A stretch of DNA of 64,000 nucleotides from the NCBI GenBank assembly GCA_015069385.1, contig SVIS01000002.1, positions 33,480 to 97,479 on the forward strand, written 5' to 3'. The number at the start of each line of letters is the position of its first letter. Position 1 is the first letter of the stretch. Under the pieces are notes generated by a model, which made no database searches, was not told where the DNA came from, and was given only the letters and a program-made list of their open reading frames with translations. This DNA comes from Clostridiales bacterium. GTDB lineage: Bacteria > Bacillota > Clostridia > Christensenellales > UBA1242. Of the stretch, positions 41,587-47,022 are shown one piece after another. The position numbers were made by a program, and so were the translations under genes.

Positions 41587-41829
41587 TTAACAATATTGTT
41601 TTTTTAATTTATCTATTTTTTTACTTATCTCATTCACATCTTGTAAAAGCAACTTAAATTTCACCTCACTTGCTTTCATTTCGTTTTCAATTTCAAGCCT
41701 TTGTTCATCATTTGCCTTTGCATAGCGTTTTAAAATGTCAAGTTTTTCTGCCTCCAATTGTTCTAGATCTTTTAATTTATTATCAAGGGCATTATTTGCT
41801 TTTTTTAATGTTTTCATAATATTATCCAT
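41587..41829 (-). CDS. small coiled-coil protein, last gene of the DGR operon
   Basis: 80 aa with heptad-rich sequence. A strong AGGAG RBS overlaps the stop of the target gene, with an 8-nt gap. Confidence 0.6.
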   Translation of the reverse strand: MDNIMKTLKKANNALDNKLKDLEQLEAEKLDILKRYAKANDEQRLEIENEMKASEVKFKLLLQDVNEISKKIDKLKKQYC

Positions 41830-41837
41830 ATATGCTC

Positions 41838-44672
41838 CTACCTTGTAATTTGACTTACTGCCTGTTGTATTTGCTCAAGAGTTTGCCTACTTTCTTCAAT
41901 ACTTTTTCTAATTGCTACGCTATTTGTTTTTGTTACCTCAGCATAAGTTTTAATTATATATTGGGCATTCCTTGCATCAGAATAACCAGCATAATTTCTA
42001 TGTCTTGCTTTTGGATTACTTTCTCTTTCAAAACGTTGAGATAGTTCACGTTTTAAATCGTTATAACCCTCGCCTGTTGTTACGCGTTCCACTTTAATTC
42101 CATCTTTATTCATAGCAGTCATGATTGCTACCGCAGACTCCTCTACCGCATCTACGAGTGCTTTTGCAGAAATTCTACGACCTTGCTTATCAGCAGAACG
42201 CAATTCATTTAATACTTTTGTTGGTATTTCAATATTGTCGTAACAAACTGTTTTTGTTTGTGGATCATACCAAATATATGCTTGCCCCAATATTCTTACT
42301 TCACCGGTAGGAGCGCCCTGTTCATTTAACACACTTTCTTCAAAGACTAAAAAGCCCGCATTAGGATTTGTATAACCATCATCTACACATTCTTCACCTG
42401 CCCCACCAAGCACTTGGCAACAATTTGTTATATCACCTAAAACAAAGCCAAGAGGGTCATCTTTTTCAAGAACTCTAAATTTTACACAACTTTTTTCATC
42501 TGATTTATCGGCACGAATAATATATGAATCTTTTAGTTTTTTTGCTTTTTCGTATATCTCTTGAATTTCATCAAACTGGTCTTGGTCGTAACCATATTTA
42601 CCAACAATTTCTGCTAATATTTCATTACCTTCTTCAATATCATCATATTCAATAATGCTGCAATGCTCAGCAACAAATCGTGGAGAAAGTAATGCACGTT
42701 CTTCATTACCATTAACAACTCTGTTTGGATAGTTTTTTAAAATTCTGTCAAAAGCATTATGAGCCGAACATAAATAATCTTGACTATCCATTAAGTCGCC
42801 ATCTTTATCACGAAGTCTAAAATTCATAAAGTCAGGGTTTTCGTGGTAATATTTCATAAAAAATTTGGCAAAGTTAGGATTATATTCATCTTTTAAAGTC
42901 ATTTTAGAAAATCTTGAATGAATTTCCGCACCCAATTCAGAAGGCGATGTGTTTTGATTTTTTGTTTTTGCAATATAATTTAAAACATAATTATATGCTC
43001 TTTCACACTCACCTTGATTTTCAGAAAAACCACCTATAGCATAAAATATTTTCATTAAGTCTATAAGAGAATTATTTTTTTCTGTACCTTCTAGGGTATC
43101 AAATTTTAGTGTTTTTACAAGTCTACCCCACCTTTGATTGTTATTATTTATAAAATATTTTTTCATTTGACTAGCAGGAAAAACTAGCATAGTATACTCA
43201 GGTGGAATAAACTTAATATTTCCATTTTGTTTCCATGTTTTTAGCTGAACATAATTTTGCCTAAAATTTGTATTAAATACTTTTTTTAACTGTTCTATAC
43301 TAAAATCTAATCTATATGAACCATTTTCTAATTTTTGATCAATTTGGTGAGAAATAGTTACATGCTTTTTATCTTTAGATAAATAAATATACATATAACT
43401 ATTAATATTTGTATAATGTTTATCTAAAAAAGCATTTTCAATATTACTTATTTGTTTTGTACCTGTTTCAAAACAAATTTGTGTGTTATTCAAGCCAGCG
43501 AAAGCATAATCTCCAAGTTTTGTTACATGTGATGGAATATATATTTTATTTATTCCAATACACCCCTCAAATGCATGTGCGCATATTTCATGTTCATTAT
43601 CTGGTATTATATATTCTACAGTAGGTTCCCTGGTTAAATTTAATGCTTGCTGCAAAAAGCCACTATTGGTAAAATCCCATTGATATTCGGCTTTATATTG
43701 AGAATTACCATCTATTTGTTTAGAATTTGCACTATTTAAAAATGCCCTAACTAGAGAGTTTTGCCACATTGAACAATTATCATGGTCATATGTTGGATAA
43801 AAAGGTAAGCCGGATAAAATTGCCTCTTCGGTTTCTAATTCTAAATATTTATCAGCACCAAAACGCTTGCCTTTTGAATTAATACTTTTAGGTAGTTGTT
43901 CCCAGTTTTTTATTTCAAATGTAACGGGCTCAACTTTAACCCATTCAACACTACCGGTTTTTGGAACTATTGTTCCATCTTCATAAATATGATTTTTTGA
44001 ATCATTCCAAACAATTACCCTTACATATTTTTTGCCTTTATATATAAATTCAGGATTTTGTTTAGATAAAAAATCTTCACCATATTCACGTTGACCGTTT
44101 GTTGTATAAAGCCTGCCAGTTGCCTGCAACTCAGGCTTTAGCATTCCTCCTTGGTATTGGTTTTCAAGTTCTAAAAAAAGATTTTGAGGTACTTTTGTTT
44201 TAGGGTATTCACCTATATTTATAAAATGTTTTGTTTTTTTATCTATTTTTTTGTGTAAAATATCAATTTTACCGCCACCCGCACTACGTGCGGAGATATA
44301 AGATTCCAGATTGAGGTACAAAGCGGGGCACAGCGACAGACTCCTAGCTCTAACATTGTCCCAACCCAAAGAGCCATCGTAGTCTATAAACCTAACAATG
44401 TTGCTAGAATAGGCAGAGCGAAGCCAAGGAGCACCAGCCCTTTTATCCCGGGCCGTATCACACAAACTGCTTTGCCATGAATAATTCATTAAAGCAAAAT
44501 CGGTTAATGTTTTGATTCGCTCATTTTCGGGAATATTCTTGACTTCTTCATAAGAATTTAATTTTATGTAGTCTGAGGTAAATAAACTATTATTTCCTTT
44601 TTCGCCAGTTGTAGTTGTATTATCTAATTTTTGCAATATTACCATTTTTGAAAAATCTATATTTTTGCTCAT
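41838..44672 (-). CDS. DGR variable (target) protein: N-terminal C-type-lectin-like variable domain, BspA-type LRR segment, large uncharacterised C-terminal region
   Basis: 944-aa uninterrupted ORF with a GGAGT RBS. It contains VR (codons 78-118) encoding ...GAPWLRSAYSSNIVRFIDYDGSLGWDNVRARSLSLCPALYLNL. No signal peptide or TM helix. Confidence 0.85.
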   Translation of the reverse strand: MSKNIDFSKMVILQKLDNTTTTGEKGNNSLFTSDYIKLNSYEEVKNIPENERIKTLTDFALMNYSWQSSLCDTARDKRAGAPWLRSAYSSNIVRFIDYDGSLGWDNVRARSLSLCPALYLNLESYISARSAGGGKIDILHKKIDKKTKHFINIGEYPKTKVPQNLFLELENQYQGGMLKPELQATGRLYTTNGQREYGEDFLSKQNPEFIYKGKKYVRVIVWNDSKNHIYEDGTIVPKTGSVEWVKVEPVTFEIKNWEQLPKSINSKGKRFGADKYLELETEEAILSGLPFYPTYDHDNCSMWQNSLVRAFLNSANSKQIDGNSQYKAEYQWDFTNSGFLQQALNLTREPTVEYIIPDNEHEICAHAFEGCIGINKIYIPSHVTKLGDYAFAGLNNTQICFETGTKQISNIENAFLDKHYTNINSYMYIYLSKDKKHVTISHQIDQKLENGSYRLDFSIEQLKKVFNTNFRQNYVQLKTWKQNGNIKFIPPEYTMLVFPASQMKKYFINNNNQRWGRLVKTLKFDTLEGTEKNNSLIDLMKIFYAIGGFSENQGECERAYNYVLNYIAKTKNQNTSPSELGAEIHSRFSKMTLKDEYNPNFAKFFMKYYHENPDFMNFRLRDKDGDLMDSQDYLCSAHNAFDRILKNYPNRVVNGNEERALLSPRFVAEHCSIIEYDDIEEGNEILAEIVGKYGYDQDQFDEIQEIYEKAKKLKDSYIIRADKSDEKSCVKFRVLEKDDPLGFVLGDITNCCQVLGGAGEECVDDGYTNPNAGFLVFEESVLNEQGAPTGEVRILGQAYIWYDPQTKTVCYDNIEIPTKVLNELRSADKQGRRISAKALVDAVEESAVAIMTAMNKDGIKVERVTTGEGYNDLKRELSQRFERESNPKARHRNYAGYSDARNAQYIIKTYAEVTKTNSVAIRKSIEESRQTLEQIQQAVSQITR
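44279..44293 (-). other. GC-rich hairpin 25 nt downstream of VR
   Basis: The coding strand reads CCGCAC-GTA-GTGCGG (6-bp GC-rich stem), inside otherwise AT-rich coding sequence. Confidence 0.5.
44319..44440 (-). repeat. DGR variable repeat (VR)
   Basis: 122 bp matching 45976-46097, with 11 mismatches that all fall at template-adenine positions. In frame within the 944-aa ORF. Confidence 0.93.
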
Positions 44673-44733
44673 AGGTATACTCCGTTTTTTTTATTGTAAC
44701 AAATTTCATTATGATTGTAAAGACTATAATTAA

Positions 44734-45756: not shown

Positions 45757-45975
45757 ATTCCTCCTTATTATTAATTTGTGCCACCCCTCTATAATATTAG
45801 ATAAACTTCCAAAGCACGTTTGCGTTAGTTGTTAAGGTGGCAATCTTCTTCTGCTTCTTATTTTAAAAAGAAGTTCAGAAAAGAATAAAGTCCCTTTGCC
45901 TTATACACACGATTATTCTACTTAGAATAAACACTTCTGGCTGTTTTATAATGATTAAATTTCATTCTTCAAAGG

Positions 45976-46097
45976 CAAATCGGGGCACAGCGACAGATTC
46001 CTATCTTTAACATTGTTCCAATTTAAAGAGCCATCGTAGTCTATTTACCTAACATTGTTGCTAGAATAGGCAGAGCGAAGCCAAGGAGCACCAGCCC
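45976..46097 (-). repeat. DGR template repeat (TR)
   Basis: Intergenic copy located 45 nt after the avd stop. It has an in-frame TAA and several AAT/AAC codons. I count 29 adenines on the transcribed strand. Confidence 0.93.
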
Positions 46098-46861: not shown

Positions 46862-46938
46862 TGGTGCGCGTGAAGGGATTCGAACCCCTGACCTTCGCCT
46901 TAGAAGGGCGCTGCTCTATCCAACTGAGCTACACACGC
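46862..46938 (-). tRNA. tRNA-Arg (anticodon UCU), CCA encoded
   Basis: The reverse complement GCGTGTGTAGCTCAGTTGGATAGAGC...CTTCTAA...GGTTCGAATCCCTTCACGCGCACCA folds as a cloverleaf. Anticodon loop is CTTCTAA. Confidence 0.88.
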
Positions 46939-46948
46939 AAATAAATTT

Positions 46949-47022
46949 TGGAGCGGGTGATGGGAATCGGACCCACGCAACCAGCTTGGAAGGCTGGGGC
47001 TCTACCATTGAGCTACACCCGC
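46949..47022 (-). tRNA. tRNA-Gly (anticodon UCC), CCA encoded
   Basis: Reverse complement GCGGGTGTAGCTCAATGGTAGAGC-CCAGC-CTTCCAA-GCTGG...CACCCGCTCCA. Anticodon loop is CTTCCAA. Confidence 0.88.

Follow-up and report, generated by a model that had tools for sequence, protein, structure and literature searches.

A diversity-generating retroelement with its variable region near the N-terminus of a 944-residue target protein in gut Clostridia

To our knowledge, diversity-generating retroelements (DGRs) are the only natural systems for targeted protein hypermutation, and nearly every DGR target that is understood is a C-terminal lectin fold carried on a phage tail or a cell surface. A stretch of 64,000 nucleotides (nt) from the Clostridiales bacterium assembly GCA_015069385.1 (contig SVIS01000002.1), which we call the window, carries a DGR cassette whose variable region (VR) lies near the N-terminus of a protein of 944 amino acids (aa). 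This raises the question of how a variable segment comes to stand at the front of so large a protein, and of what such a protein does. The reading that we favour, and to which we give about even weight, is that of an active DGR of the DUF6273-targeting, tentaclin-like reverse transcriptase (RT) lineage, in which a cytoplasmic, permuted binding head is coupled to an acyltransferase-like output. The anatomy of the locus is firm; its function, be it that of a sensor or of a toxin, is what we infer.

The retroelement and its diversification

The first-pass annotation of this DNA had described a target open reading frame (ORF) of 944 aa with the VR at codons 78-118, 232 nt past the start codon and about 300 nt past the RT stop, in the order avd, template repeat (TR), RT, target. 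We reproduced these coordinates and both distances, the second of which measures 294 nt; the whole cassette lies on the minus strand. TR and VR are 91% identical over 122 nt, and every mismatch (11/11) falls at a TR adenine. The mismatches change codons 92, 95, 103, 105, 108, 109, 111, and 117, which are the variable residues listed in that annotation, and codon 102 silently in addition. The VR has 19 diversifiable codons, corresponding to about 10^15 possible protein variants. A conserved 17-mer and a conserved 24-mer in the flanks each occur exactly twice in the window, compared with about zero occurrences expected by chance (0.02 for the 17-mer), so that the window holds a single TR and a single VR.

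The RT matches Pfam RVT_1 at 2.7e-16 and phrog_1423, the phage DGR RT family of PHROG, at 2.7e-95. Its translation carries the DGR-type motifs IGNQTSQ and YMDD; the motif of the DGR clade of RTs is [I/V/L]GxxxSQ. A tblastn search with the RT gave matches in 128 phage records. Of these we examined the two with the best scores, from phage nd12 and from a human faecal 'Bacteriophage sp.' contig, and both share 40% identity with it; the closest is the RT of the tentaclin phage nd12, with the identity extending over 96% of the query. Avd was recognised by phrog_3206 ('Avd protein of DGR') at 1.8e-18, and by NCBIfam DivGenRetAVD (7.9e-11) and Pfam bAvd (1.3e-5), both of the latter below their curated cutoffs. 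We refer to related loci by L numbers and to homologous proteins by P numbers; Avd orthologues with 62-63% identity occupy the same position in L005, L006, L007, and L010. All five DGR-defining features that we tested are present, namely an adenine-confined TR/VR pair, a DGR-type RT, Avd, a GC-rich VR end with a hairpin, and diversification, and the locus is a bona fide DGR.

The hairpin differs in position from those of characterised DGRs, as the canonical one sits at or beyond the target stop codon. Here it is translated: read on the minus strand (44293-44279), it encodes A-R-S-A of the ISARSA motif (residues 126-131), which is conserved throughout the family, and the minimum free energy (MFE) of its 30-nt context is -9.8. 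In a survey of 21 target-gene copies from 19 loci, an equivalent GC-rich hairpin was found at the same codons in every copy that has an RT directly upstream (13 loci), with MFE values from -6.7 to -14. Hairpin and WLRS motif are both lost in six of the eight RT-less copies, the loci without the hairpin being L001-3, L011, L014, and L026; the two partial exceptions are L009, in which an Avd remnant accompanies a variant hairpin, and L021, in which the hairpin is decaying. The GC content is 45% in the TR and 29% in the window. The GC-rich repeat end and the hairpin are described here as target-recognition elements with a putative role in homing, and at the hairpin the DNA homing signal and the protein sequence constrain each other.

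The placement of the VR is conserved. Approximately 45 full-length homologues have lengths of 912-975 aa, query coverages of 94-100%, and identities of 43-61%. The complete cassette of avd, TR, RT, target, and a small ORF is found in L005, L006, L007, L010, L018, L024, and L025 (in L007 by gene homology only, with no TR/VR pair resolved), and an RT-target arrangement is found in L028 and L029. The survey of homologues that the first-pass annotation had proposed places the VR at codons 83-121 wherever a TR/VR pair was resolved (L005, L006, L010, L018, and L022), with repeats of 103-111 nt. Mismatches fall at adenines in 15/17 cases in L005, 19/19 in L006, 22/23 in L018, and 10/10 in L022. Twelve of the related loci come from uncultured gut Clostridia, in metagenome-assembled genomes (MAGs) of Christensenellaceae type.

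Activity was assessed in the 90%-identity cluster of the sister protein P0001, whose 15 members come from different samples. Of the 17 alignment columns with at least three residue types, 16 fall at codons 89-112, each of them corresponding to a TR codon with an adenine at position 1 or 2, and the pairwise difference per site within the VR is 22 times that in the rest of the protein. For the window protein itself, three 94-aa fragments from other samples (P0372-P0374, equivalent to window positions 44391-44672) end inside the VR; their only differences from the window are at codons 91-92 (N/D and I/H/V), both of which correspond to adenine-bearing TR codons. Because the sister-lineage variants differ almost only at TR-adenine codons, these comparisons show an active element, with mutagenic retrohoming from TR to VR and diversification at the population level. 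The contigs of P0372-P0374 are independent and all stop after residue 94, a pattern expected of assembly breaks at a hypervariable site.

Domains of the target protein and of its relatives

On the DUF6273 (PF19789) profile, the VR falls at the C-terminal end. Residues 17-120 of the target align only to profile positions 64-170 of 172, and their 15.5 bits are below the Pfam gathering score of 23.5 bits; relatives exceed this cutoff, with 29.4 bits for P0074 and precomputed PF19789 annotation for several homologues. When residues 136-350 were joined artificially ahead of residues 1-135, the score of the window protein rose from 15.5 to 20.3 bits with a match spanning profile positions 28-171, and P0074 gained likewise, reaching 35.1 bits after 29.4 in native order; for P0003 only the re-permuted sequence was scored, at 22.1 bits. 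Residues ~298-350 match profile positions ~28-63. The order of motifs is reversed with respect to the tentaclin nd12_tgt1, in which W-x-NS (80-95) precedes WLR (223), whereas in the window protein WLRS (83) precedes WQNS (303). The AlphaFold2 (AF2) model of residues 1-440 forms one confident body, with a predicted local distance difference test score (pLDDT) of 94 and a predicted template modelling score of 0.93. On the basis of the gain in Pfam bits, the motif order, and the single-body model, we consider it probable that a DUF6273 domain, which is C-type lectin (C-lec)-like, is circularly permuted here, the variable C-terminal strands coming first and the usual N-terminal half following at residues ~140-350; the VR would lie near the N-terminus because of this permutation. 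The second, non-variable half-fold noticed in the first-pass annotation is, by the same three lines of evidence, probably not a second module and instead the displaced N-terminal half of the same domain.

Fold and profile comparisons of this module gave mixed results. A Foldseek search of the N-terminal model against BFVD returned phage DUF6273 proteins as the best non-LRR matches (E from 1e-3 to 0.1). The same search against PDB returned leucine-rich repeat (LRR) matches only and no C-lec fold, probably because of the permutation, as the tool cannot align permuted folds. With hhalign, WLRS...CPALYLNL aligns to the tentaclin WLRT...RPLCNLK at an E-value of 0.0018; the re-permuted family alignment did not join its segments against nd12_tgt1, and the second segment alone, with an E-value of 0.65, is not significant.

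The large invariant body that had been noted behind the variable module is indeed multi-domain, with LRR, helical, and GNAT-fold parts. The BspA-type LRR stretch described there is confirmed by Pfam LRR_5 (residues 354-423, 2.3e-8), and Foldseek relates it to the TpLRR structure 6mlx and to 4gt6 and 4h09. The AF2 model of residues 438-944 (pLDDT 87) consists of an all-helical part (~438-730), for which there is no Pfam match, a beta-alpha part (~731-909), and a long terminal helix. When this model was compared with PDB, all of the top 50 matches (50/50) were acetyltransferases of GNAT type, led by GCN5 and PCAF; the best one has an E-value of 1.9e-3, a probability of 1.0, and a template modelling score, normalised on the target, of ~0.53. 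Residues D739, P740, G746, C751, C752, E815, G867, N871, Y894, D899, A900, and Q904 are invariant or near-invariant in the family, so that the Cys-rich patch of the first-pass annotation (C751, C752) proves to be a conserved feature. In the predicted structure, residues ~731-909 form a GNAT-fold domain that contains the Cys-Cys pair and the Glu.

Among 1.84 billion representatives, a profile of the C-terminal domain (residues ~717-944, window 41841-42524) matched 2,762 clusters at E <= 1e-3. In the 150 best matches the domain is nearly always at the C-terminus; when nine of its partners were scanned, LRR_5 was found in five (in four of them as strong multi-repeat matches) and no Pfam domain at all in the other four. 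A further carrier is the hypothetical protein ORF68L of the Microcystis phage MaMV-DC (hhalign probability 97.9%). The C-terminal Cys-Cys/GNAT-fold domain represents a large family without a Pfam model. In some proteins it stands behind long BspA-type LRR arrays (L023 1528-3621).

The N-terminal module is likewise found in several combinations. With or without the LRR, the permuted DUF6273 domain is fused to at least three divergent helical and GNAT-like forms, of which form A is the window type and forms B (type B) and C belong to divergent relatives; the three are 15-19% identical, and the Cys-Cys/Glu core is common to all of them. In another branch (P0074, P0076, P0079, and P0081) it is fused to a MoxR-like AAA_5 ATPase, and the fusion gene is followed by a gene of 127-129 aa and then by a DUF2201_N metallopeptidase/VWA-like gene. 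A third database search with the N-terminal profile gave no output classes beyond the GNAT-like and AAA_5 ones.

Several relatives depart from the intact cassette. Family members without a DGR have a degenerate VR motif, as in P0010 (L001-3), P0062 (L026), and the tandem arrays of L011 and L012. These arrays (L011 1799-10171 and L012 3062-8605) come from one MAG labelled Prevotella sp., which is possibly mis-binned, and contain two to four target paralogues, some of them frameshifted, with no RT on the contigs. L009 (2261-3312) is a decaying cassette that has kept a frameshifted avd and lost the RT, and in L017 (7249-7929) an RT called at only 226 aa lies beside an integrase with no detectable TR, the target retaining both WLRS and the hairpin. 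Most type-B relatives consist of two ORFs, of ~577 aa and ~356-369 aa, each form being present in clusters of more than 100 member sequences. The junction is conserved in diverged loci (L028 7720-7760, L029 5718-5758, and L022 6967-7007): frame 0 ends with TTA CGG TAA or TAG, after which the homology carries on in the +1 frame as G-K/R-Y-H-G-L-F-D-S. The split reflects either a frameshift fixed long ago, with translation restarting at an ATG downstream, or programmed +1 shifting at a rare CGG codon that a stop follows.

As had been stated in the first-pass annotation, the target has no signal peptide or transmembrane helix, its highest Kyte-Doolittle value for a 19-residue window being 1.09 compared with a threshold of ~1.6; it also has no lipobox, Ig domain, or recognised anchor domain. 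We extended the search for export signals to ~225 relatives in all. Of 86 homologues, only three lie above the hydrophobicity threshold, and the cluster-mate P0047, on inspection, suggests that their upstream starts were mis-called. Among 139 other carriers of the C-terminal domain, none has a signal peptide or a clear transmembrane helix, and four have marginal internal peaks. GNAT and MoxR-like AAA+ domains normally need the cytoplasmic cofactors acyl-CoA and ATP, respectively. Because of the lack of export signals in these relatives and the fusion to domains that use acyl-CoA or ATP, we infer that the protein probably works inside a cell.

Layout of the locus and mobile contexts

The features of the cassette and its immediate neighbours are compiled in Table 1.

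Table 1. Features of the DGR locus, with positions in the window, listed in the direction of transcription of the cassette
Feature	Position	Strand	Basis or remark
tRNA-Arg(TCT) and tRNA-Gly(TCC)	46862-47022	-	directly upstream of avd
avd, DGR accessory protein, 189 aa	46143-46712	-	Avd core at residues ~60-186, behind an N-terminal extension of ~60 aa
TR, 122 nt, 29 adenines	45976-46097	-	repeat comparison with VR
Non-coding TR-RT spacer	45757-45975	-	no ORF listed
DGR reverse transcriptase, 340 aa	44734-45756	-	RVT_1, phrog_1423
DGR target gene, 944 aa, single continuous ORF	41838-44672	-	ORF list, homologues
N-terminal module, residues 1-348, read as circularly permuted DUF6273	43629-44672	-	Pfam, motif order, AF2
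VR, 122 nt, target codons 78-118	44319-44440	-	encodes the WLRS...CPALYL strands
GC-rich 17-mer TCTGTCGCTGTGCCCCG, resembling an initiation of mutagenic homing (IMH) site	44324-44340	-	3' end of VR; identical copy in TR at 45981-45997
GC-rich hairpin CCGCAC-GTA-GTGCGG	44279-44293	-	within the target ORF, 25 nt 3' of VR
Short BspA-type LRR (LRR_5), residues 354-423	43404-43613	-	Pfam 2.3e-8, Foldseek
All-alpha domain, residues ~438-730, no family recognised	42483-43361	-	AF2
Predicted GNAT-fold domain, residues ~731-909	41946-42482	-	AF2 and Foldseek
Long C-terminal helix, residues ~910-944	41841-41945	-	AF2
Small ORF, 80 aa, charged, predicted helical	41587-41829	-	begins 8 nt past the target stop
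PLD-family protein, 301 aa	40628-41533	+	PLDc_2 at 4e-10; convergent with the cassette

Characterised DGRs typically have a spacer between TR and RT, and the position of the spacer in the window agrees with this arrangement; the spacer presumably belongs to the DGR RNA. In the 61-nt gap between RT and target there is a promoter-like site (44693-44721, minus strand) with TTTACA, a 17-nt spacer, TACAAT, and an extended -10 TG, and judging from this sequence the target may be transcribed from its own promoter; promoter and terminator scans of this AT-rich DNA gave no more sites than expected from shuffled sequence. We also rejected an alternative genetic code, as the ORFs are long and intact under table 11.

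The 80-aa ORF downstream of the target has homologues in the same position in L005-8, L010, L013, and L016 (46-54% identity), as well as in L001, and in type-B loci a gene of 72-73 aa takes this place. It has nothing in PADLOC or NCBIfam and only a marginal PHROG match (0.005), to an entry of unknown function. The PLD-family neighbour has weak DrmC/DpdK matches in PADLOC and NCBIfam; it is absent beside the orthologous cassettes, and we treat it as a mere neighbour of the system.

An identical target protein is present on three contigs, including a 123-kb contig of the Joint Genome Institute (JGI) metagenome 3300031555, on which its neighbours are ordinary chromosomal genes (ribosomal protein S21, NAD synthase, and UvrC) and include no phage genes. 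An Rfam scan of the window found nothing beyond the two tRNAs. The tRNA pair may be an island integration site and the cassette a small island remnant at it; a search for att-like direct repeats of the tRNA ends that would bound such an island gave only short AT-rich repeats of the kind expected by chance.

Mobile functions are frequent around the relatives, where we found a MobL relaxase with a tyrosine integrase, serine recombinases, a relaxase with MobC, an integrase, and GmrSD with a methylase. Orthologous and paralogous cassettes lie beside MobL or other relaxases, tyrosine integrases, or serine recombinases at L024 6400-17600, L028 600-3700, L022 1-1700 and 10500-12200, and L017 6090-7043. 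From these gene contexts, the DGR and its target appear to travel on integrative mobilisable elements in sister genomes. As to the co-occurrence with defence islands or prophages that had been proposed as a check, the link to defence is anecdotal, and there are no virion genes in the surroundings of the window cassette or in the related loci.

Known systems, rival explanations, and significance

The layout of the locus is not without precedent. The tentaclins of phages nd4 and nd12 (Baykov et al. 2023, PMC10743442) are DUF6273 targets with a 5' VR that lie directly downstream of the RT, and DUF6273 targets of DGRs have also been described in Faecalibacterium prophages (PMC11792537) and in Toutatisvirus (bioRxiv 10.1101/2024.10.15.618418); in these published targets the VR is always at the C-terminal end of the domain (PMC10743442, PMC11792537, bioRxiv 10.1101/2024.10.15.618418). 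The first-pass annotation had described the arrangement as non-canonical, and the N-terminal VR is real, while its novelty as a layout was overstated, given that phage tentaclins with the VR in the 5' part of a target downstream of the RT are already published. The window cassette and the tentaclins share the order avd-TR-RT-target, a VR placed 5' within the target gene, and a DUF6273 target, and their RTs are the closest between this locus and phages. Tentaclins have a canonical, non-permuted DUF6273 domain (residues 45-264 in nd12_tgt1) followed by Ig-like domains with a conserved C-terminal Ig, and they are encoded by phages; in the window protein the domain appears permuted, its VR occupies residues 78-118, and LRR, helical, and GNAT-fold parts come after it, and the cassette is chromosomal or island-borne with no virion genes. 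Neither Pfam nor the AF2 models gave an Ig-like domain in the window target, whereas nd12_tgt1 has Big_13/Big_9 matches, and because it lacks Ig domains the window protein is not a tentaclin.

A second comparison is offered by the cytoplasmic, DGR-diversified 'antigen sensors' proposed for multicellular bacteria, namely STAND/NACHT-CLec proteins and the MoxR-vWA-VMAP ternary systems (Doré et al. 2024, PMC10907252; Kaur et al. 2020, PMC7159879). Both they and the window family are predicted to be cytoplasmic, combine a hypervariable C-lec-type pocket with signalling or effector modules, and shuffle domains among paralogues, and the AAA_5 branch with its DUF2201_N/VWA partner parallels the MoxR-vWA theme. 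In the known sensors, however, the C-lec/FGE domain with its VR is C-terminal and an NTPase is present in the protein or the operon, whereas the window cassette has no NTPase, an N-terminal VR, and a GNAT-fold end; their hosts are filamentous or aggregate-forming Proteobacteria and Cyanobacteria, in contrast to the small, low-GC gut Clostridia considered here. As it has no NTPase and its C-lec domain is not C-terminal, the window protein is not a STAND- or MoxR-linked target. The intracellular sensor on which the first-pass annotation had speculated is supported in part, since the GNAT fold and the AAA+ paralogues favour an intracellular binding module with an output over a classical adhesin; cytoplasmic sensors diversified by DGRs had been proposed before, with C-lec domains at the C-terminus.

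Other familiar proteins resemble the system in part. Mtd from Bordetella phage BPP-1 and TvpA of Treponema denticola share with it the adenine-specific transfer, the GC-rich repeat end with a hairpin, and a variable ligand-binding face coded mainly by AAY; in them the VR is the extreme C-terminus, the hairpin lies at or after the stop, and the protein is part of a virion or a surface, whereas ~825 residues follow the VR in the window protein and the hairpin is translated. Residues ~731-909 are like the GNAT superfamily, including the GNAT-fold toxins of toxin-antitoxin systems, in predicted fold, in the order of strands and helices, and in the acidic E815 that ends the strand equivalent to beta4; they differ in having no sequence similarity, no acetyl-CoA pyrophosphate loop, an atypical invariant Cys-Cys, and a helical domain of ~290 aa ahead of them. 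BspA-like LRR surface proteins have LRR_5 in common with the window target, which is without their signal peptide, transmembrane helix, or anchor. Literature searches that combined DGR with BspA and DGR with circular permutation found no earlier description of this protein family. The RT-then-5'-VR DUF6273 layout is thus already known, and the permuted, non-Ig, GNAT-tailed target family is not described in the papers searched.

Avd and RT copy the TR, with adenine-specific errors, into target codons 78-118, and in the reading that we favour the resulting hypervariable pocket would bind a changing partner, most plausibly a protein of a phage or mobile element or another macromolecule. Binding would be coupled to the acyltransferase-like C-terminal module, either by recruiting a substrate to the enzyme or by switching the enzyme on, and the 80-aa helical protein might act as a regulator or an antidote. 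The module would be a portable sensor head with exchangeable outputs, because paralogues swap the GNAT-like tail for a MoxR-type AAA+ ATPase with a metallopeptidase/VWA partner gene. A wider proposal, which we put forward tentatively and regard as somewhat unlikely, is that of a cytoplasmic, DGR-programmable recognition family of gut Clostridia on mobilisable islands, in which a circularly permuted C-lec pocket with ~10^15 variants, its homing hairpin being coding sequence as well, steers an uncharacterised Cys-Cys GNAT-fold enzyme or, in paralogues, a MoxR ATPase onto intracellular targets; if true, this would be an adaptive-immunity-like or retargetable protein-modification system.

A number of observations weigh against the cytoplasmic sensor. 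DUF6273 and BspA LRR domains are typically extracellular or virion-borne, and a missing signal peptide is compatible with release by lysis or with a dedicated exporter. The calls of the permutation and of the GNAT fold depend on AF2 models and modest scores, and for the latter these are one model and a Foldseek E-value of ~2e-3. The canonical GNAT acetyl-CoA loop (Q/R-x-x-G-x-G/A, after beta4) is not evident in the family alignment, and the C-terminal domain has no Pfam match, only chance-level results in a profile search of PDB sequences, and no tie to an activity through any experiment or known family; an hhalign comparison with a genuine GNAT from L017 gave a probability of 1.9%. The target has nothing in PADLOC, PHROGs, or NCBIfam, the neighbourhood in the window consists mostly of housekeeping genes, and the association with defence islands is anecdotal. 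DGR templates mostly use AAY codons, and an in-frame TAA in a TR is unusual; read in the frame of the VR, this TR has TAA at 46044-46046, opposite the TTT of VR codon 95, and its codon 108 is AAA, so that many homing events, unmutated or partly mutated, would truncate the target. The in-frame TAA could reflect relaxed selection or a built-in off switch.

The main rival to the sensor is a released, bacteriocin-like polymorphic toxin, in which the DGR-diversified lectin/LRR head would bind receptors and redirect the toxin to the changing surfaces of competing cells, the helical domain would mediate entry, the GNAT tail would be toxic, and the small ORF would confer immunity. GNAT toxins acetylate aminoacyl-tRNA, and colicins lack signal peptides and are released by lysis, which matches the absence of a signal peptide here. 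The divergence of C-terminal forms A, B, and C around a common Cys-Cys/Glu core, a coupled small ORF that differs by form (80 aa in A, 72-73 aa in fused B, and ~130 aa in the split form), the frequent location of cassettes on mobilisable islands, the tandem arrays of paralogues in genomes (L011 and L012), and the usual role of DUF6273 and LRR_5 as binding surfaces all fit such a toxin. The paralogues with a MoxR-like AAA+ domain and a VWA/metallopeptidase partner, however, are unlike toxins, genes for lysis or export are missing next to the cassette, the searches recognised neither a toxin nor an immunity family, and the small ORF looks like one for a generic charged helical protein that is perhaps not homologous across forms. 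We judge this explanation unlikely. Less likely still is an adhesin or receptor-binding protein borne on a surface or particle, whether exported non-classically, carried as island cargo for the recognition of recipients, or left over from a tentaclin-like decoration protein of a prophage. The relationship of the RT to that of nd12, the shared RT-then-5'-VR DUF6273 order, the phage DUF6273 and LRR proteins that are the best fold matches in BFVD, the PDB matches of LRR_5 to 4gt6 (described as cell-surface) and to the pneumococcal antigen PcpA, and the island genes near cassettes in relatives point in this direction. Yet neither the target nor the ~225 relatives have a signal peptide, lipobox, transmembrane helix, Ig domain, or recognised anchor, there are no virion genes in the window neighbourhood or the related loci, and the fusions to GNAT and AAA+ domains imply a need for acyl-CoA and ATP; in addition, a tblastn search of 50,697 phage genomes matched only the C-terminal domain, in Microcystis phages, and plasmids gave no match. 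We consider an adhesin or virion protein improbable.

There is finally the chance that the gene is an artefact of annotation, that is, two genes or a decaying pseudogene, with the large part translated from an internal start and the VR module a small stand-alone protein. Such a case is suggested by the abundant type-B relatives that are split into ORFs of ~577 aa and ~356/369 aa with a conserved frame break, and by the gene of L022, which is fragmented further. The type-B split is, however, at about residue 577, inside the helical domain and not after the VR module, and it is absent from the window lineage. The window ORF runs through 944 codons uninterrupted at a GC content at which stops arise easily, the identical protein is found on three contigs, the ~45 homologues keep their full length at 43-61% identity, and both halves have confident AF2 models. 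These results settle the two-gene alternative raised by the first-pass annotation in favour of one gene; we regard an artefactual fusion as exceedingly improbable, and for the window it is effectively excluded.

The locus shows DGR machinery moved to the front of a large protein, with a binding fold that is probably permuted and a homing signal inside the coding sequence, and it ties hypermutation to an acyltransferase-like domain or, among the paralogues, an AAA+ ATPase. It also exposes a C-terminal family without a Pfam model, which includes a cyanophage protein and whose function can now be tested by way of the partner that is best defined. As a binding scaffold for engineering, the compact variable module at the N-terminus could be of use. 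The cytoplasmic sensor that we favour would carry the idea of diversified sensing inside cells beyond large multicellular Proteobacteria and Cyanobacteria, to gut anaerobes with small genomes and the mobile islands in them.

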